Positions 1 through 51,752 of a DNA stretch of 64,000 nucleotides are shown here, one piece after another. Below the pieces are notes generated by a model, which did no database searches, had not been told where the DNA came from, and worked only from the letters and a program-made list of their open reading frames with translations. How positions within the stretch are numbered: the first letter of the stretch is position 1; each line of letters opens with the position of its first letter. The translations under genes and the position numbers were made by a program. Source of the DNA: Patescibacteria group bacterium (lineage in GTDB: Bacteria; Patescibacteriota; Minisyncoccia; Phycocordibacterales; UBA12079); NCBI GenBank assembly GCA_043800905.1, contig JAZDMO010000007.1, positions 1,627 through 65,626 on the forward strand. The letters are read 5' to 3'.

Positions 1-986
1 CGTCTAAAATGCCAGAAGGTAACAATGATGAAGATAATATTACTATAAGAAGTTGGGGAGATATTCCAAAATTTAGTTTTGAAACAAAAACGCATGATAT
101 TTTAGGAAAAGAATTGGATATATTAGATACTGATAAAGCCACGGAGGTTTCTGGATCACGCTTTTATTATTTGAAAGGTGATTTGGTTTTGTTGCAATTC
201 GCTTTAACAATGTTTGCTTTTGAAACATTAACCAATGAAAAAATAATAAAGAAAATTATAAAACAAAAAGGGTTAAATCTTTCTTCAAAACCGTTTGTAC
301 CTATGTTGCCACCTGTTATGATTAAAAATACAGTTCAAAATGCTATACATCGAGTTTTCGGTGATCAAACTTATAAAATTGGAAATGATGAAGGTTTGAA
401 TTTGGTTGCTTCTGCAGAACACACTATGGCTCCTTATCATATGAACGAAGTTTTAGACGAAAAGGATTTACCAAAACGATATATTGGTTACTCAACCGCT
501 TTTAGAAAAGAAGCAGGGACATATGGTAAAGACATGCAAGGATTTTTTAGAAACCATCAGTTTGATAAATCAGAAATGGAAAGTTTTACTACTGCTGAGA
601 CTGGAGAAGATGAACAAGAGATGATTGTTGGATTACAAGAATATATGATGCAACAATTGAAAATTCCTTATCGTGTGCAACAAATTTGTACTGGAGATAC
701 TGGAAAACCAGACTACCAACAATATGATATTGAATGCTGGATGCCTGGTCAAGGAAAATATCGCGAAACTCACACATCAGACTACATGACCGATTTTCAA
801 ACACGCGGTATTAAATCTTTTTATAGAACAAAAGATGGAGAGAAAAAATTATTACATACCAATGATGCTACCGCTTTTGCTGGCCGCCCAATGATCGCGA
901 TAATGGAAAATTATCAGCAAAAAGATGGAACAATTAAAATACCTGATGTATTACAAAAATATATTGGAAAAAAAATAATAAAATAA
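1..986 (+). CDS. serS: seryl-tRNA synthetase, class II catalytic region; 5' end lies outside the window, so partial
   Basis: ORF 9..986 stays open back to the window edge. Translation carries the SerRS signature VSGSRFYYLKGD and a motif-2-like FRKEAGTYGKDMQGFFRNHQFDKSEM. The N-terminal coiled-coil arm is missing and should be upstream of the window. Confidence 0.8.
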   Translation, partial: SKMPEGNNDEDNITIRSWGDIPKFSFETKTHDILGKELDILDTDKATEVSGSRFYYLKGDLVLLQFALTMFAFETLTNEKIIKKIIKQKGLNLSSKPFVPMLPPVMIKNTVQNAIHRVFGDQTYKIGNDEGLNLVASAEHTMAPYHMNEVLDEKDLPKRYIGYSTAFRKEAGTYGKDMQGFFRNHQFDKSEMESFTTAETGEDEQEMIVGLQEYMMQQLKIPYRVQQICTGDTGKPDYQQYDIECWMPGQGKYRETHTSDYMTDFQTRGIKSFYRTKDGEKKLLHTNDATAFAGRPMIAIMENYQQKDGTIKIPDVLQKYIGKKIIK

Positions 987-1224
987 AATAAAATTAAAAT
1001 TAATTTATTTAATTTCCACAACTTTTTTAGTTATTATAATCTTAGATTTAAAACATCCCATCAACTCTCTTTTTTCTTCGTTAGTTCCATCTTTTAAAAT
1101 ATATTTAGCATAGGTTTTTAAATCTATGTCTTTGTGTTTTGTGTTTTTATCTTGAACACCCAAAACCCTCTATTTCTTCTTTTGTACAATATTTTTTATC
1201 TAAGACGATGGTGAAAATATAAAA

Positions 1225-1536
1225 TTGTTTGAAATGGATAATGACGGAAAAAAATTTGTAAAAATAAGGAAGTGTAATTTTGATGTCGAAATTTCAGTTG
1301 ATGCGATTAAAAAAATAGATAAGTATGATACCTTTTGTTTATTTTCAGGAGACGCTGATTTTGTTTATTTGAATAACTTTTTAAGAAAAAGGGGCAAAAA
1401 GGTTATTTTAATAAAAGGGGGTTATATTACAAGTAAATTACGGAAATCGACTGATTTAATTATAAACGCACAGAAAATCAAAAAACATATCGCTAGAATA
1501 GAACAAAGACCTGACAAGTCAGGTCTTTGTGGATAG
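1225..1536 (+). pseudogene. NYN (LabA-like PIN-fold RNase) domain C-terminal fragment, probable gene remnant
   Basis: 103-aa ORF with a TTG start. It matches the C-terminal half of NYN domains (DTFCLFSGDADFVYLNNFLRKRGKKVILIKG). The upstream in-frame sequence hits a stop at 1201 and no N-terminal NYN half (vfiDGeN motif) is found in any frame. Confidence 0.4.
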
Positions 1537-1678
1537 TTTTGCCGAATGACCTCGGCTAAGGTGTACTAATATACTATACCGAGAGGTCGCTAAAGTCAAC
1601 AAAAATCTTGGGGATAAATATATAGAATTTCAGGATATATGGTTTGAAAATAAAGATTAAAAGTTATATAAATAGCTT

Positions 1679-2770
1679 ATGAAAATAGAATTAAATAAGA
1701 TTAAAATAAGGGAAGTAATTGAGGGCTATAAGGATAGTGCTGAGGAGGGTGTTGTGGCTTACAAAGGAAAACTTGATATTCGTCCTAAATATCAAAGAGA
1801 ATTTGTTTATTCAGGAAAACAGAGAGATGCAGTGCTTGAAACTATCAAGCAAGGTTTCCCTTTGAATGTGATGTATTGGATGATACGCGATGACGGAGGT
1901 TTTGAATTATTGGACGGGCAACAAAGAACAATTAGTATTGGGCAATATGTGGCTGGAGATTTTTCTTTAGGTGATAGGTTTTTTCATAATTTAACAAAAG
2001 AAGAACAAGAGCAAGTTTTAGATTATGAATTGATGATTTATTTTTGTGAAGGAACAGACAAAGAGAGATTAGATTGGTTTAAAACAATTAATATTGCAGG
2101 AGAGAAATTAACTGATCAAGAATTGAGAAATGCAGTTTACACAGGATCATGGCTTTCCGATGCTAAATTGAAATTTAGTAAAACTCATTGCGCCGCATAT
2201 CTTTTGGCGAATGACGGAGGAGCTCTTTTGAAAGGTTCTCCAATCAGACAAGAATATCTTGAGACAGCTCTTGCTTGGATAAATAACGGGGAAGTAGCTG
2301 ATTATATGGCAAAACATCAACATAATAAAAATGCTGACGAATTGTGGAATTATTTTCAAGATGTGATTACTTGGGTGCGAAAAACTTTTGTAAATTATCG
2401 AAAAGAAATGACTGGTGTGAATTGGGGAGAACTATATAATTCATTCAAAGATAAAAAACTTAATGCGATAAAATTAGAAACAGAGATTGCTGAATTGATG
2501 CAAGACGAAGATGTCACCAAAAAGTCAGGGATTTATCCTTATGTTTTAACAAGACAAGAAAAATATCTTTCAATCCGAGCTTTTGATGATAAAACGAAAA
2601 GAGAAACTTATGAAAAACAAAAAGGAATTTGTGTGAAGTGTGGAGAGAAATTTGTGATAGATGAGATGGAGGCGGACCACATTACTCCTTGGTATGAGGG
2701 CGGAAAAACAATCACAGAAAATTGTCAGATGTTGTGTAAAGATTGCAATAGGAGAAAATCAGGAAAATAA
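1679..2770 (+). CDS. DUF262 (ParB-like NTPase, DGQQR motif) fused to a C-terminal HNH endonuclease; GmrSD/type IV restriction-like defence nuclease
   Basis: The N-terminus has KYQREFVYSGKQ and LLDGQQRT, typical of the DUF262/ParB-like nuclease-NTPase domain. The C-terminus has the CxxC...DHIxP...N...CxxCN pattern (CVKCGEKF..ADHITPW..ENCQMLCKDCNRRK) of an HNH nuclease. Confidence 0.6.
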   Translation: MKIELNKIKIREVIEGYKDSAEEGVVAYKGKLDIRPKYQREFVYSGKQRDAVLETIKQGFPLNVMYWMIRDDGGFELLDGQQRTISIGQYVAGDFSLGDRFFHNLTKEEQEQVLDYELMIYFCEGTDKERLDWFKTINIAGEKLTDQELRNAVYTGSWLSDAKLKFSKTHCAAYLLANDGGALLKGSPIRQEYLETALAWINNGEVADYMAKHQHNKNADELWNYFQDVITWVRKTFVNYRKEMTGVNWGELYNSFKDKKLNAIKLETEIAELMQDEDVTKKSGIYPYVLTRQEKYLSIRAFDDKTKRETYEKQKGICVKCGEKFVIDEMEADHITPWYEGGKTITENCQMLCKDCNRRKSGK

Positions 2771-2825
2771 TTTGATAAAATCCAACTATATTAAAAAAAC
2801 AGGGATTTAATAAAAAACCAAAATC

Positions 2826-3665
2826 ATGAAATTTAAATTATTTGATAGGGAGAGGGATAAAAAAGTTTTAAAGGCGGTTATTATTGCCGTTGTTGTGATA
2901 GGTTGTTCTATCACAATTAAAGATGAATTGGTTTGGCAATTTGGAGGAGAAAGTGATTACTATGATGATTATTCTTATACAGAAAATTATTTGGGTGAAT
3001 GTAATGTGGCTAAAATAGATATTAAGGGTTTCCTTGATGTTGAAGCTTATGAAGAAGGAGCTATTTCTTCTAGTGAAATTGTTGGGGCCATTGAAGATAT
3101 TCAAAATAATCCTGATCTTAAGGCCATTATTTTAGACATTGATTCTACTGGTGGAGTTCCTGTGGCTGGTGAAGAAATATCTAATGCTCTTAGCCGTATA
3201 GATAAGCCCACAGTGGCTTTGATTAGAGGTTTTGGTAATTCTTCTGCTTATTGGGTAGCTGTTGGTACAGATAAAATTTTTGCTTCTGCTAATTCTGATG
3301 TGGGATCTATTGGAGTGACAATGTCTTATTTAGATAATGCACAACAAAATCAAATTACAGGTTTGAATTATAATTCAATCAGTTCGGGAAAGTTTAAAGA
3401 CACTGGAGATCCTAATAAAACTTTAACTTGGGAAGAAAAACAATACCTAATGCGAGATGTGAATATCATCAATGATAATTTTATAAAAGCCGTAGCGGAA
3501 AAAAGAAATTTAGAGATTGCAAAAGTTAAAAAACTAGCTGATGGCTCTTCGATGTTAGGACAAATGGCTTTGGAGAATGGTTTGATTGATGAAATTGGTG
3601 ATATGTATGCTGTGAAAAAATATCTTGAAGACCTTATCGGCGAAGAAGTGATTTTGTGTGATTAA
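2826..3665 (+). CDS. sppA: signal peptide peptidase SppA (S49 family, ClpP/crotonase fold)
   Basis: N-terminal TM helix. Motifs KAIILDIDSTGGVPVAGEEI and RGFGNSSAYWVAVGTDKIFASANSDVGSIGV are typical of S49 protease IV. Confidence 0.7.
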   Translation: MKFKLFDRERDKKVLKAVIIAVVVIGCSITIKDELVWQFGGESDYYDDYSYTENYLGECNVAKIDIKGFLDVEAYEEGAISSSEIVGAIEDIQNNPDLKAIILDIDSTGGVPVAGEEISNALSRIDKPTVALIRGFGNSSAYWVAVGTDKIFASANSDVGSIGVTMSYLDNAQQNQITGLNYNSISSGKFKDTGDPNKTLTWEEKQYLMRDVNIINDNFIKAVAEKRNLEIAKVKKLADGSSMLGQMALENGLIDEIGDMYAVKKYLEDLIGEEVILCD

Positions 3666-3785: not shown

Positions 3786-4469
3786 ATGAGCAATAAATAT
3801 TCTATTCTCTTAAAAGATTTAAGACTTAAAAAAGGTTTAACTCAAAAGGAATTAGCTAAAAAATTAGGAATTTCTCGTCCTTCCTATATTGCTATCGAGC
3901 AAGGGAAGAGAGACATCACCCTGAATGAATTTGAAAAATTGTCAGGTGTTTTGAGTGTGTCTTTTGATGATTTTGAGAGAGGGGAATTGCCTGATTATGA
4001 AAAATATAAACAAATGATTTTAACCTTTTTGAGAATGAGTGATGGAATAACCAAAACTAAGTTAGCTAAGTTGGTGTATCTTTCTGATTTTGCTTGGTTT
4101 TATTTTAATTTAAAAAGCATGAGTGGAATGCCTTATAGGAAGATTCAATACGGTCCTGTTCCTGATGCTTACTTTAGAGCTATTGATGAATTAGAAAATA
4201 GTGGAAAAATTTTAATTAATTGTAAACAGAAAGATGATAAAGAAATGTTTATTATTTCTGAATCAGAGAGCAATAAAAACCAAAAGTTAGATTCCATTTT
4301 GAAAGATGAGGTTGATTTAATGAAAAATATTTTTAAAAAGTGGAAAAATAAAAAGACAGCAGAAATTGTTAATTTTACCCATAATCAATTGCCGTATTTA
4401 ATCGCAGAAGATGAAGAGATTATTTCTTATGGCCTTATAACTCAAGAAAATCCAGATGAAATCTATTAA
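3786..4469 (+). CDS. XRE-family HTH fused to a Panacea/DUF4065 (SocA/PanA-like) domain; antitoxin-like
   Basis: N-terminal LKKGLTQKELAKKLGISRPSYIAIEQGKRDITLNEFEKL is a Cro/C1-type HTH. The C-terminal ITKTKLAKLVYLSDFAWFY...YGPVPD resembles the DUF4065/Panacea antitoxin domain. It overlaps the next ORF by 14 bp. Confidence 0.55.
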   Translation: MSNKYSILLKDLRLKKGLTQKELAKKLGISRPSYIAIEQGKRDITLNEFEKLSGVLSVSFDDFERGELPDYEKYKQMILTFLRMSDGITKTKLAKLVYLSDFAWFYFNLKSMSGMPYRKIQYGPVPDAYFRAIDELENSGKILINCKQKDDKEMFIISESESNKNQKLDSILKDEVDLMKNIFKKWKNKKTAEIVNFTHNQLPYLIAEDEEIISYGLITQENPDEIY

Positions 4470-4854
4470 ATATGAAGTTGTTTTTAAGCCTTTTGCTGAA
4501 AAACATTTTATAAAAAGTTTTGCGAAAAAATATAAGAATACTTGGGATTTTACTTTTGAGATCATTATAGAAGAATTTAAAAGAATAGATGTTTTGTTTT
4601 TTAAAACTATTGCTGAAATAATTTCTGATCCAAATAAGAGCATCATTATTTGTAAGACTGAGTTTAAAATTGCAGGAACAAAAGATTCAAGACATCGTTC
4701 TGGAAACCGTTGTATTGTGGCTTTGCATAAAGAAATTAATGAAGTTCGGGTTTTACTTGTTTACCACAAGAAAGATTTAAAAGGGAATAATGAAACCGTA
4801 GCTTGGAAAAAAATAATTAAAGAAAATTATCCTGAATATAACGATTTAATTTAA
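4456..4854 (+). CDS. RelE/ParE-superfamily-like toxin candidate; cognate toxin of the upstream Panacea-HTH gene
   Basis: 132 aa, translationally coupled to the upstream gene by overlap. The C-terminal half (KIAGTKDSRHRSGNRCIVALHKEINEVRVLLVYHKKDL) follows the RelE/YafQ pattern: beta strands ending in a basic/His-containing tail. The N-terminus YEVVFKPFAEKHFIKSF resembles the RelE start. Confidence 0.4.
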   Translation: MKSIKYEVVFKPFAEKHFIKSFAKKYKNTWDFTFEIIIEEFKRIDVLFFKTIAEIISDPNKSIIICKTEFKIAGTKDSRHRSGNRCIVALHKEINEVRVLLVYHKKDLKGNNETVAWKKIIKENYPEYNDLI

Positions 4855-4881
4855 ACATTTATTTTGTGTTAAAATCTATCT

Positions 4882-28094: not shown

Positions 28095-28165
28095 CGCGGG
28101 ATGGTGTAGTGGTCGCACGGGAGGCTCATAACCTCCAGGGGTTTGTTCGATTCAAACTTCCGCAA
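28095..28165 (+). tRNA. tRNA-Met (anticodon CAU), initiator-like with a C1·A72 mismatch
   Basis: Manual fold: acceptor cgcggga/ttccgca with 1-72 C·A; D-stem gtgt/gcac; anticodon stem ggagg/cctcc with loop ctCATaa; 4-nt variable loop; T-arm gtttg-ttcgatt-caaac. CCA is not encoded. Followed by terminator aaaaccaccttaattaaggtggtttt (28170-28205). Confidence 0.6.
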
Positions 28166-28261
28166 CAAGTAAACAAAACCACCTTAATTAAGGTGGTTTT
28201 GTTTTGGGAAGTATTTAAAATTTTTTGTAAATATGTTATATTGTTTTTCGTATTAATAAAT

Positions 28262-28335
28262 GTCGGCGTAGCTCAGTTGGTTAGAGCGCAGCACTCATAA
28301 AGCTGAGGTCGAAGGTTCAACTCCTTCCGTCGACA
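28262..28335 (+). tRNA. tRNA with CAU anticodon: elongator Met or Ile2 (lysidine)
   Basis: Acceptor gtcggcg/cgtcgac; D-arm gctc-agttggtta-gagc; anticodon loop ctCATaa; T-arm gaagg-ttcaact-ccttc. Confidence 0.65.
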
Positions 28336-28387
28336 CACAGATTGTTGAGAAAATTAAGGATATCTGTTAAAGTATGTGTGCACTTTG

Positions 28388-28460
28388 CGGGTGTAGCTCA
28401 GCTGGTTAGAGCGTCCGCCTGTCACGCGGAAGGTCGAGGGTTCAAGTCCCTTCACTCGCG
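28388..28460 (+). tRNA. tRNA-Asp (GUC)
   Basis: Acceptor gcgggtg/cactcgc; anticodon stem tccgc/gcgga with loop ctGTCac; T-arm gaggg-ttcaagt-ccctt. A terminator hairpin follows at 28470-28500. Confidence 0.75.
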
Positions 28461-28551
28461 CAAAATTAAAAAACTGAAACTTTTTGTTTCGGTTTTTTAA
28501 TTTATATTGAAAATATATAGTTTTTCATATATTATTTAAATTGGTTTAAAA

Positions 28552-28627
28552 GCCAATGTAGCTCAGTTGGTAGAGCACCCCCATGGTCAGGGGGAGGTCT
28601 GCGGTTCAATCCCGCACATTGGCTCCA
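28552..28627 (+). tRNA. tRNA-Thr (GGU), CCA encoded
   Basis: Acceptor gccaatg/cattggc; anticodon stem ccccc/ggggg with loop atGGTca; T-arm tgcgg-ttcaatc-ccgca; 3' tcca. Confidence 0.75.
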
Positions 28628-28648
28628 ATTATAGAGGAGATGAGTTTC

Positions 28649-28721
28649 GCCCTCTTAGCTCATCTGGTAGAGCAACGGTATCGTAAATCGTAGGTGGTCG
28701 GTTCAAGTCCGACAGAGGGCT
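28649..28721 (+). tRNA. tRNA-Thr (CGU)
   Basis: Acceptor gccctct/agagggc; D-arm gctc-atctggta-gagc; anticodon stem acggt/atcgt with loop atCGTaa; T-arm gtcgg-ttcaagt-ccgac. Confidence 0.65.
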
Positions 28722-28807
28722 CAATAGATATTTTGGTAGTCGCCTCATCGGCGACCCGCTGGAGAGGAGGGTTCAATTCTGCGAGGTGACTCATGAGTTT
28801 TAATTAT

Positions 28808-50254: not shown

Positions 50255-50450
50255 GTTGTTTTAATTTATAGTAATTATTAAAGCATTTTTTAACAATGAC
50301 AGCAATTTTGTTTGAATTCAGGAATTAATTTGTGGGATGAGTCTTAATATTTTTGAGTAAAATATATTGCTATTTTGGGATAAAGGGTGTAGTTTGATAG
50401 GTAGACTGTTCTTTAATTTCAAAATAAAAAAACTAAAAGAGGAGGCAAAA

Positions 50451-51752
50451 ATGAGGAAAAGAATATTACTTATAGATCCGCCCTTTCAAAGATTTATGGG
50501 ATTTTCCAAAACAGGAATTCCTCTCGGGCTGTTGTCTTTGGCAGGAGTTTTGAAAAAAAGAGGTCATTGGGTTGAAGTTCTGGATTCGGATTATAATCCA
50601 AATGGAACCCCTTACCCTTTTATGGATAAAATAGGCCACTATGATGAATACCTTGATAATTTAAATAATGGAAACCATTTAATTTGGGAGGACATTTCTT
50701 CCCAGATTGAGAAATCAAAACCAGATGTGGTTGGTATTTCTTTTATTTCTACCAAATTAAGGAGCGGATTAAGGGTCGCGCAAATTGCAAAAAAGATGGG
50801 TGTAAAAAGAATTGTGGGAGGGGGTCCTCATGTAATAATTCGTCCAGATGATGTTGCTGGCAAAGGTAGTGCTGTTGATTATTTAATTATTGGAGAGGCT
50901 GAAGAACAATTGGATGTTTTTGAAGGAAGCCCTTCTAATAGCGTTATAAAAGCAAGCAGAATAAAAAATTTAGATTCATTGCCTTGGATGGCCAGGGAAA
51001 GTCTTGTGGGGATTCACCATTATCGACCTTCTGATCTTGGTTTTATGATAACCTCAAGAGGGTGTTCTGGGTCTTGCAATTTTTGCTGTTCTGAGAAATT
51101 GTGGGGCAAAAAAGTCAGATTCAGGAGTATTCAAGATGTCATTGCAGAAATGGTTTATGTTAACAAAAAATATGGTACCAAAAAGTTTTATATGACAGAT
51201 GATACTTTTACAATGAATAGAAAAAGAGTTTTTGAATTTACTGACGGGCTTCTTGGAAAAAAATATGAATGGGGTTGTTTGACTCGAGTAGATAGAATAA
51301 ATAGTAAAATGCTTGAACAAATGGTTTTGTCTGGTTGTAATATGATTAAAGTCGGTGTTGAGAGTGGAAGTCAGAGGGTATTAAATTTAATGAACAAGGG
51401 AACAACCCTCAGTCAGGCAAGAGCTGTTGCAAAGTTGCTTAATGATTTTTCTGTAACTTGGCTAGCTTATATAATGGTTGGAGTTCCTGGGGAAACCTCT
51501 GAAGATGTTGATGCCACTATGAAGTTTGTCGATGAAATCAAACCCACTTATGTTAGTGCTTCAATTTATACTCCGTATGTTGGAACTGGTTTTTACAAAA
51601 ACGGTTACGACCATTTATTAAAAGGGAAAATTATGGGCGATTATGCTATCGAAGAAGCAAATCACCACAGTTTAAAAGTTATAGCGGGAGATGTTCCTCG
51701 TGAAAAGATTGTTGAATTCATGAGATTTGCGGATAGTTATAATTCACCCTAG
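50451..51752 (+). CDS. B12-binding-domain radical SAM enzyme (class B radical SAM methylase-like)
   Basis: The N-terminal RILLIDPP...GIPLGLLSLAGVLKKRGHWVEVLD is a B12-binding Rossmann. It is followed by a CSGSCNFCC (Cx3Cx2C) radical SAM cluster motif. The start is placed at the ATG after the aggagg SD (frame of the tracked ORF). Confidence 0.7.
   Translation: MRKRILLIDPPFQRFMGFSKTGIPLGLLSLAGVLKKRGHWVEVLDSDYNPNGTPYPFMDKIGHYDEYLDNLNNGNHLIWEDISSQIEKSKPDVVGISFISTKLRSGLRVAQIAKKMGVKRIVGGGPHVIIRPDDVAGKGSAVDYLIIGEAEEQLDVFEGSPSNSVIKASRIKNLDSLPWMARESLVGIHHYRPSDLGFMITSRGCSGSCNFCCSEKLWGKKVRFRSIQDVIAEMVYVNKKYGTKKFYMTDDTFTMNRKRVFEFTDGLLGKKYEWGCLTRVDRINSKMLEQMVLSGCNMIKVGVESGSQRVLNLMNKGTTLSQARAVAKLLNDFSVTWLAYIMVGVPGETSEDVDATMKFVDEIKPTYVSASIYTPYVGTGFYKNGYDHLLKGKIMGDYAIEEANHHSLKVIAGDVPREKIVEFMRFADSYNSP

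Follow-up and report, generated by a model that had tools for sequence, protein, structure and literature searches.

We have analysed a short interval of the window, that is, of the whole 64-kb stretch of DNA under study, in which one intact gene lies among gene remnants between the housekeeping genes serS and sppA. Below, M denotes the DNA methyltransferase and R the restriction protein (or their genes) of the two-gene module to which this gene is related. The features of the interval and its flanks are the following:

serS, ending 18 bp before the recombinase tail and cut by the window start: NCBIfam TIGR00414, 303 bits, profile 115-418 of 418
1005-1163, minus strand: C-terminal tail (52 codons) of a large serine recombinase, found by tblastn to the protein of locus L016
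1164-1224, no strand: putative junction left by a deletion, with the recombinase tail on one side and the NYN 3' half on the other, placed by gene order
1225-1536, plus strand: 3' half of an NYN gene, frame open from 1204; Pfam NYN 67-141 of 145 only, E 8e-13
1503-1530, no strand: perfect hairpin with a 12-bp stem where the NYN remnant ends, from a terminator-like scan
1537-1678, no strand: non-coding spacer (142 bp) before R, where the methyltransferase 3' end sits in relatives
1679-2770, plus strand: R gene, ATG start, 363 aa, intact; DUF262 (ParB/Srx-like NTPase), helical middle and zinc-HNH nuclease
1913-1927, plus strand: DGQQR motif of the DUF262 nucleotide-binding domain, aa 79-83, read from the sequence
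2630-2761, plus strand: HNH domain, aa 318-361
2826-3665, plus strand: sppA, a resident housekeeping gene and the right boundary of the islet; NCBIfam TIGR00706, 167 bits
3786-4854, plus strand: two-gene module of an HTH-SocA/Panacea antitoxin-like gene (3786-4469) and an overlapping 132-aa gene (4456-4854)

A preliminary description of this DNA had seen here a small variable defence islet between serS and sppA, with a truncated NYN gene adjoining the nuclease gene, and the profile matches to both flanks and to the NYN remnant agree with it. The variability is also real: where relatives have an sppA of 68-82% identity, the DNA upstream of it contains a varying set of MTase, REase, RT or helicase genes. 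The sppA homologues themselves behave normally in Patescibacteria, with identity falling from 82% to 50%. No convincing att-like direct repeats flank the islet; the short A/T-rich pairs are typical of chance, and one pair of 77% identity (1007-1028 and 4844-4865) has suggestive positions and is likewise unconvincing.

The DUF262-HNH gene

The two domains that had been read in the 363-aa protein, a DUF262 domain with its DGQQR motif and a C-terminal HNH nuclease, are both well supported by Pfam, at scores that chance would not give: GmrSD_N/DUF262 (PF03235) matches aa 34-154 with 61 bits (cutoff 33.2), and HNH (PF01844) matches the C-terminal domain with 52.3 bits (cutoff 21.4). The same profile check gave no match to DUF1524 (PF07510) in this protein at E <= 0.1. 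DGQQR is invariant in the family alignments A2 and A3. In the nuclease domain the sequence has C318xxC321, D333-H334 (nt 2675-2680), N348, C353xxC356 and N357, and C318, C321, D333, H334, N348, C353 and N357 are invariant in alignment A3. This domain resembles an HNH nicking endonuclease of known structure (PDB 4h9d, E 2e-7). An AF2 model built on a two-clade alignment (pLDDT 85.6) resembles HNH nucleases, BrxU, SspE and ParB/Srx folds; it supersedes a model built on 45 sequences about 80% identical, whose pLDDT was 57. Over its whole length (aa 1-363) the protein also matches the PADLOC REase_II profile PDLC03418 (1-372 of 372, E 3.4e-133, 442 bits), a REBASE-derived model of Type II REases, and its length agrees with the roughly 360-390 aa typical of the family.

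A methyltransferase partner in related loci

Homologues of R number more than 8000 in the databases and form 506 clusters at 50% identity; they occur in many phyla and also on plasmids and in phages. Directly upstream of R, about 180 of 185 related loci encode an m6A methyltransferase of the EcoRI family, M, which is recognised by Pfam EcoRI_methylase (PF13651) and PADLOC MTase_II (PDLC03297). Among the 165 chromosomal or metagenomic loci, 6 were too short to judge, and M was found upstream in 156 of the 159 that remain evaluable: immediately so in 131, and behind an insert of 0.4-2 kb in 25. Viral contigs give the same picture (23 of 24 loci), and plasmids and a Flavobacterium phage likewise carry the pair, with R identities of 38-62%. 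Whatever the source, be it genomes, metagenomes, plasmids or phages, the pairing persists to R identities as low as 36%. Where evaluable relatives have M, it is encoded on the same strand and at most about 2.5 kb upstream; in complete modules R starts 0-2 bp past the end of M, so that the two genes are probably co-transcribed, and two M-R fusion proteins are known in the family. A RhuM gene is a recurrent insert separating the two, and no other conserved neighbour of R was found in the related loci. On these grounds the 363-aa ORF is very probably the R half of a two-gene restriction-modification family of the BanLI type, and the window copy is a fresh member of a known family of modules with a hitherto unstudied mechanism.

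This changes the reading of the gene. The preliminary description had taken it for a stand-alone, modification-dependent nuclease of the GmrSD type, that is, a Type IV enzyme like GmrSD, BrxU or SspE, in which DUF262 would sense modified phage DNA and the HNH domain would cut it. The N-terminal DUF262 with DGQQR is indeed common to all of them. However, the C-terminal nuclease of the window protein is a zinc-binding HNH of the PF01844 type where theirs is DUF1524, and with 363 aa the protein is some 200 residues shorter than the solved SspE and BrxU chains (560-580 aa). PADLOC places it in REase_II and not in Type IV, with a match along the full profile. Moreover, about 97% of evaluable relatives have an operon-like arrangement with the m6A methyltransferase upstream, sometimes as a fusion, whereas the Type IV enzymes lack this coupling; R is solitary in the window only through gene loss. 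BanLI, finally, behaves as a restriction-modification system (PMC3990576). This comparison does not support the Type IV reading, and we regard it as decidedly improbable. From the coupling to a methyltransferase it follows, as far as the sequences can tell, that R would almost certainly be blocked by modification and not dependent on it.

In BanLI, from Bifidobacterium animalis subsp. lactis, an integrase gene is followed by an EcoRI-like M and then by R; the system methylates RTCm6AGG on one strand, with an EOP of about 0.1 in E. coli (PMC3990576). REBASE lists BanLI as Type II, and its R gene carries a DUF262 annotation (PMC13091528). The integrase, EcoRI-like m6A M (about 42 kDa) and R (about 43.5 kDa) of BanLI resemble the arrangement of L016 and related loci, whereas the window has neither methyltransferase nor integrase and only R is intact. 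BanLI is probably the studied member of the window R family. What ties the two together is the EcoRI-like M, the PGAP name, the protein sizes and the gene order, with slight support from MATPLNR, which is encoded by the M.BanLI primer and resembles the N-termini of the family M proteins (MAKSLN, MATKTLN). A second pair, on a Sulfitobacter plasmid, leaves GAATTC unmethylated in a strain whose unique m6A motif is GGCATC (PMC9025767), and this pair likely methylates GGCATC. The sole studied members of the R family methylate only one of the two strands of an asymmetric site.

Target recognition

What directs R to its target? The window R belongs to a sub-clade that spans CPR bacteria and other phyla at about 80% identity between members. 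Pairwise identities average 81.7% in R, 70% in the core of M and 21% in its C-terminal region, so that nearly uniform R proteins from different phyla are partnered by methyltransferases with unrelated variable regions. Even when two R proteins are at least 90% identical, their partners' C-termini differ in length and share an identity of only 12-20%. Such conservation of R, while M varies, is far above what is usual for restriction enzymes. Very recent horizontal spread was considered as the cause of the approximately 80% identity and rejected, since gene G+C tracks host G+C; the saturation of synonymous sites between the window R and all relatives except the nearest also counts against it.

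From the identity of R at about 80%, combined with the unrelated variable regions of its partners, which we assume to be target-recognition regions, we infer that R would lack sequence specificity and be targeted by M. We put this forward tentatively: R may depend on M for targeting in a manner like that of the Type III (Mod/Res) systems. The likeness is one of logic only, in that the single M of BanLI methylates an asymmetric site on one strand and the R family has an NTPase domain and seemingly no specificity. The components differ, R being a ParB-type NTPase with an HNH domain in place of an SF2 helicase with a PD-(D/E)xK nuclease, and M a gamma-class EcoRI-family enzyme and not a Mod subunit. 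We propose that, in the complete module, the methyltransferase would mark one strand of a short asymmetric site, and the HNH domain would cut unmarked incoming DNA under the control of the nucleotide-binding DUF262 domain. As a generalization that we consider plausible, though short of an even prospect, BanLI-type modules could form a distinct class of restriction-modification systems in which a hemimethylating M provides all the specificity, and the cutter is an interchangeable, near-universal ParB-type NTPase-HNH protein, about 80% identical across phyla and harmless if orphaned. If this is true, a specificity-free, nucleotide-controlled nuclease steered by M would amount to a novel mode of restriction that relies on a ParB-like switch, and it would explain the persistence of intact orphan R copies like that of the window.

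Alternatively, R could be a classical Type II or IIS endonuclease with its own recognition site, left in the window as an unexpressed orphan that lost its promoter together with M, a very young pseudogene-to-be. REBASE and PADLOC do class the family as Type II (PMC13091528), and while R of relatives follows M almost without a gap, here it lies beyond a 142-bp spacer and behind a strong hairpin. The hairpin pattern occurs at one locus in the window, where chance would give none, and may be a putative terminator. Promoter-like hexamers are nevertheless present upstream of R, at 1546-1575, which argues against a silent gene. A nearly invariant R is also hard to reconcile with an enzyme reading its own site when members of the family methylate different sites (RTCAGG and probably GGCATC) and almost identical R proteins accompany methyltransferases with unrelated variable regions. 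The window shows no conspicuous avoidance of any site. A search for avoided palindromes in the window and the 165 loci gave only a general avoidance of 4- and 6-mer palindromes, with no outstanding site, in a test badly suited to this family since its known motifs are asymmetric. We therefore judge this alternative improbable, and return to an R that would be steered by its methyltransferase.

Fate of the methyltransferase gene and history of the islet

The M-R module of the window is incomplete: the EcoRI-family (PF13651) methyltransferase expected directly upstream of R on the same strand is absent. The preliminary description had noted neither this absence nor the recombinase tail at 1005-1163. 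No homologue of M was detected in the 64-kb window (best tblastn E 0.13), nor any remnant of it upstream of R by tblastn with 78 methyltransferase ORFs or by sensitive blastn; similarity to methyltransferase 3' ends stops about 30 nt before the R ATG, in A/T-rich sequence. The window has no other DNA methyltransferase candidate either. Its sole ORF with a DPPF motif, at 50367-51752, was considered as a protecting methyltransferase and rejected, being a B12-binding radical SAM protein. Of the spacer before R, only the final 50 nt or so are similar to the closest relative, and Rfam searches of 900-3000, which include the spacer, gave chance-level matches only.

The pieces that remain to the left of R come from larger genes. 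The recombinase tail aligns with aa 446-497 of the 498-aa L016 protein (44% identity, E 3e-9, tblastn), which has the Pfam Resolvase, Recombinase and Zn_ribbon_recom domains; of this domain set, the last 52 residues alone remain in the window. Recombinase homologues lie near the M-R pair in 17 of the 165 loci, and 13 of these 17 are upstream and on the minus strand, as in the window. The tail marks the left edge of what is most simply read as a decayed mobile element. The NYN remnant aligns with the C-terminal 100 or so residues (nt 584-880 of the gene at 152-913) of an intact 253-aa NYN protein encoded before the closest R homologue, that of locus L085 (86.5% identity), with 35% identity; it has lost the N-terminal catalytic half and hence is non-functional. 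In full-length relatives the position of the putative junction is filled by the methyltransferase gene and passenger genes, together with the recombinase N-terminus. The junction is placed by the order recombinase (minus strand), M, R in L016 and RhuM fragment, NYN, R in L085.

We propose that the module arrived on an element integrated next to serS by a large serine recombinase, and that a deletion between the recombinase gene and the NYN passenger gene would then have taken the methyltransferase gene and the NYN 5' half together with most of the recombinase gene, so that R was left intact beside a recombinase tail of 52 codons and the NYN 3' half. That a single deletion did this is, on balance, the course we lean towards in a history reconstructed from non-orthologous loci. 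An orphan R would be tolerated since it is untargeted, a leftover and not a working stand-alone defence, and is probably harmless. The account as a whole, in which the gene is the orphaned R of a BanLI-type module in a decayed element, inert after the loss of M, seems to us reasonably probable. It replaces a Type IV nuclease by an orphaned R subunit of a decayed integrative element in a defence hot spot of a CPR genome. In keeping with solitary R genes and decayed restriction-modification loci elsewhere, R remains in a variable defence hot spot after M is lost; unlike the usual orphans, which are inactivated by mutation, the window R carries no lesion.

The R gene is indeed undamaged: the protein deviates at 1 of 205 conserved family columns, with no lesion at any conserved position, and with a dN/dS of 0.08 against the L085 homologue the gene is under strong purifying selection relative to it. 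This lack of decay fits a recent loss of M and fits continued function equally well. R could thus still be working, with a cognate or same-specificity methyltransferase elsewhere in the genome and a module that is split, not broken. The intact, family-typical R and its low dN/dS favour such a split, as do the inserted genes that already part M from R in 25 loci, since strict adjacency is not required. The absence of M is, in addition, judged on 64 kb of a contig of 82 kb, itself part of the genome, and a cognate M could be encoded in the rest. Against this, wherever evaluable relatives have M, it sits on the strand of R and not more than about 2.5 kb upstream, with nothing similar in the 64 kb, and the truncations of recombinase and NYN show a deletion exactly at the expected position of M. 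A split module seems to us rather unlikely, and we keep to an R orphaned by deletion.

A further alternative gives the NYN gene a role of its own: NYN and DUF262-HNH could form a two-gene system in which NYN replaces M and of which the window copy is degraded. The mutually closest R pair, that of the window and L085, both have NYN directly upstream, and L038 and L060 too have an NYN gene close to an M-R pair. In the latter two loci, however, NYN coexists with M, and the former are two cases only, with NYN proteins that share just 35% identity. Besides, L085 is a 2.2-kb contig that begins within a RhuM gene; since RhuM genes often lie inserted between M and R, its M is probably just off the contig. 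We consider an NYN-R system highly improbable, and take NYN for a passenger of the BanLI-type module.

To the right of sppA, the first gene of the two-gene module matches Pfam HTH_3 and SocA_Panacea, and its 132-aa partner is without an assigned family. Homologues of this pair of genes, at 52-61% identity, adjoin the M-R module in L082, L083, L084, L079 and L115.

The nuclease gene and its usual methyltransferase partner

Our analysis shows that a known restriction–modification (R-M) family has a new member in the window, an incomplete one. The genuine ORF at 1679-2770 encodes a DUF262-HNH nuclease (R) and lies in DNA of ~31% G+C between serS, which is cut by the window start, and sppA, both matched in NCBIfam as the preliminary description had placed them. 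The two nuclease domains proposed there are supported by Pfam, and their motifs are legible in the sequence.

Domains and motifs of R (1679-2770, plus strand, 363 aa)
aa 34-154: GmrSD_N/DUF262 (Pfam PF03235, 61 bits)
aa 79-83: DGQQR, read off the sequence
aa 318-361: HNH (Pfam PF01844, 52 bits)
C318xxC321, D333-H334, N348, C353xxC356: read off the sequence

The same description had predicted a stand-alone, modification-dependent enzyme. While the nuclease domains, the defence context and the variable islet were borne out, this part was not, because REase_II PDLC03418 (PADLOC, REBASE-derived) covers residues 1-363 (E 3e-133), a methyltransferase gene is conserved directly upstream of R in the family, and Pfam gave no DUF1524 match in the protein. 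A Type IV reading of the window R is thus very unlikely.

The partner was identified by clustering all flanking ORFs of 80 loci each from species-representative genomes and from metagenomes. R has a single conserved neighbour, a gene of ~350 aa directly 5΄ on the same strand (median gap 2 bp), which codes for an EcoRI-family N6-adenine methyltransferase (M; Pfam PF13651, E 1e-136; PADLOC MTase_II).

Position of M among the R-bearing loci
Directly upstream of R: 131/165
Upstream, with 0.4-2 kb of passenger genes separating M and R: 25/165
Too short for judgement: 6/165
Missing from the fetched stretch: 3/165

The M-R pairing also occurs on plasmids of Aeromonas, Variovorax, Sulfitobacter, Gordonia and lactobacilli (R identity 37-62%), in a Flavobacterium phage (38%) and in 23 of 24 IMG/VR contigs (36-79%). 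The family is large, with >8000 close homologues in each of two database searches and 506 clusters at E <= 1e-30 in a 50%-identity library. Two database proteins, P0377 (688 aa) and P0509 (515 aa), combine EcoRI_methylase with GmrSD_N, and P0377 has HNH in addition; they are M-R fusions of the same family, natural or read-through. Passenger genes are repeatedly found inserted in the short M-R gap (L002, L008, L012, L030, L038, L048 and other loci). At least 8 loci have T5orf172/MUG113 (~200 aa) there; other inserts include RhuM, Bro-N, DUF2130 and several ORFs that match no family.

Two members have been studied. In Bifidobacterium animalis subsp. lactis the order is integrase, M.BanLI (EcoRI-like, 41.7 kDa) and R.BanLI (43.5 kDa); M.BanLI methylates the asymmetric RTC(m6A)GG on one strand only, and the cloned pair lowers P1 plating in E. 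coli about ten-fold (PMC3990576). According to a 2026 paper, the BanLI REase gene carries the annotation "DUF262 domain-containing protein" (PMC13091528). We infer that BanLI belongs to this family because of its size, gene order, EcoRI-like M and annotation. In Sulfitobacter indolifex GAATTC is unmethylated, a GGCATC m6A motif is unique to the strain, and a plasmid gene pair was suggested by the authors to be possibly a new R-M system (PMC9025767); the R of this plasmid is among our family matches (57% identity). The window R is very probably the restriction member of a BanLI-type pair.

Absence of the methyltransferase from the window and remnants in the islet

No M homologue was found in the 64-kb window by tblastn with 78 family methyltransferase ORFs (best E 0.13). 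The lone ORF with a [DNS]PP[YFW] motif was ruled out as a methyltransferase candidate, being a radical SAM protein. A cognate methyltransferase might act in trans from elsewhere in the genome, which we consider possible though unlikely. Upstream of R we found two gene remnants, and these occupy the place where M is expected:

1005-1163, minus strand: recombinase tail, a small ORF matching the final 52 residues of a 498-aa protein at 44% identity (E 3e-9)
1225-1536, upstream of R: 3΄ half of an NYN gene, only NYN profile positions 67-141 of 145 (Pfam)

The truncation of the NYN gene had been noted previously; the loss of M and the recombinase remnant were absent from that account. The 498-aa protein is a large serine recombinase encoded just upstream of M-R in L016, in the same orientation as in the window, and such a recombinase lies beside the pair in 17/165 loci. 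In L085, the locus with the closest R (87%), an intact 253-aa NYN gene precedes R, and the terminal part of a RhuM gene lies ahead of NYN; RhuM is often found inserted between M and R. That NYN and R form a separate system, as their adjacency in both loci might suggest, is extremely improbable. We propose that an ancestral element, recombinase(-) / M / (RhuM) / NYN / R, would have integrated 18 bp after serS, and that M would then have been lost in one deletion, which would have brought the recombinase tail next to the 3΄ half of NYN. This reconstructed history is the simplest account. The end of the NYN remnant carries a perfect 12-bp-stem hairpin (1503-1530; ACAAAGACCTGAC AAGT CAGGTCTTTGT), which occurs only there within the 64-kb window.

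The window R is undamaged. It deviates once (V113 for I) from the family consensus in 205 columns at least 95% conserved, where the family median is 2, and comparison with the L085 R gives dN/dS 0.08 (dS 0.94). The other three R copies without M (L085, L063, L122) are equally free of damage. That the window R is a silent classical Type II gene is quite unlikely.

The serS-sppA interval is a variable defence islet, as had been supposed. Four relatives (sppA identity 82%, 79%, 68% and 68%) carry differing genes upstream of sppA:

Dam-like methyltransferase
N6/N4 methyltransferase and small ORFs
reverse transcriptase, C5 methyltransferase and MwoI-like REase
large DEAD-box helicase

In one relative (L171, 401-4255) the reverse transcriptase is fused to a trypsin-like protease domain (RVT_1 + Trypsin_2) and adjoins the C5 methyltransferase and MwoI-like REase; it may be a defence-associated RT.

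Conservation of R and M and a possible mode of action

In R-M pairs the restriction enzyme is usually the faster-evolving partner. Here R, ~80% identical across phyla, and a variable M show the reverse.

Mean pairwise identity across loci
R: 81.7% (minimum 73.6%)
M catalytic core: 70%
M internal variable segment: 44%
M C-terminal segment: 21%

The sequences behind the R value come from Patescibacteria, Bdellovibrionales, Gammaproteobacteria, Omnitrophota, Poribacteria, Flavobacteriaceae and one archaeal MAG; identity of the comparison gene sppA drops from 82% to 50% within ~100 matches. The M C-terminal segment (26-76 residues) is essentially unalignable, and even where R pairs are at least 90% identical the partner C-termini are 12-20% identical and unequal in length. 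Recent spread was rejected as the cause of the high R identity, since synonymous sites are saturated and gene G+C follows that of the host.

No paper on how the M-R family works mechanistically was found in our literature search. In gamma-class methyltransferases target recognition is expected in the variable regions, and the two studied cases, BanLI and Sulfitobacter, have different asymmetric motifs. Moreover, one-strand marking by a single methyltransferase leaves at least one daughter duplex exposed to an ordinary Type IIS enzyme. Taken together, these points suggest that R may be devoid of sequence specificity and directed by M, its HNH nuclease being gated by a ParB/Srx-type nucleotide switch. 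BanLI-type modules would then resemble Type III systems in that R is steered by M, and an orphan R could be tolerated because it would be untargeted. We offer the proposal as a whole, R without specificity, M-directed and hence tolerated as an orphan, only tentatively.

Genes beyond sppA

Downstream of sppA lie two overlapping genes, one antitoxin-like with HTH_3 and SocA/Panacea domains (227 aa), the other a 132-aa ORF:

3786-4854: Panacea/132-aa gene pair

Pfam, NCBIfam, PADLOC and PHROGs gave no match for the 132-aa ORF. In three other lineages (L082/83/84, L079 and L115) the M-R module has a homologous pair as its neighbour (52-61% identity), and the window pair is probably a PanA-type toxin-antitoxin with an undescribed putative toxin. 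A 22-nt direct repeat (77% identity) has one copy just after serS (1007-1028) and the other where the 132-aa ORF ends (4844-4865), so that the islet, sppA and this pair lie between the copies; the DNA is A/T-rich, and the match is probably due to chance. Further along, five tRNA genes (Met, Met, Asp, Thr, Thr) are clustered at 28095-28722 on the plus strand. The same strand encodes almost every ORF of 150 aa or more within the first 46 kb, and in the first 10 kb, the part profiled, the GC skew stays positive.
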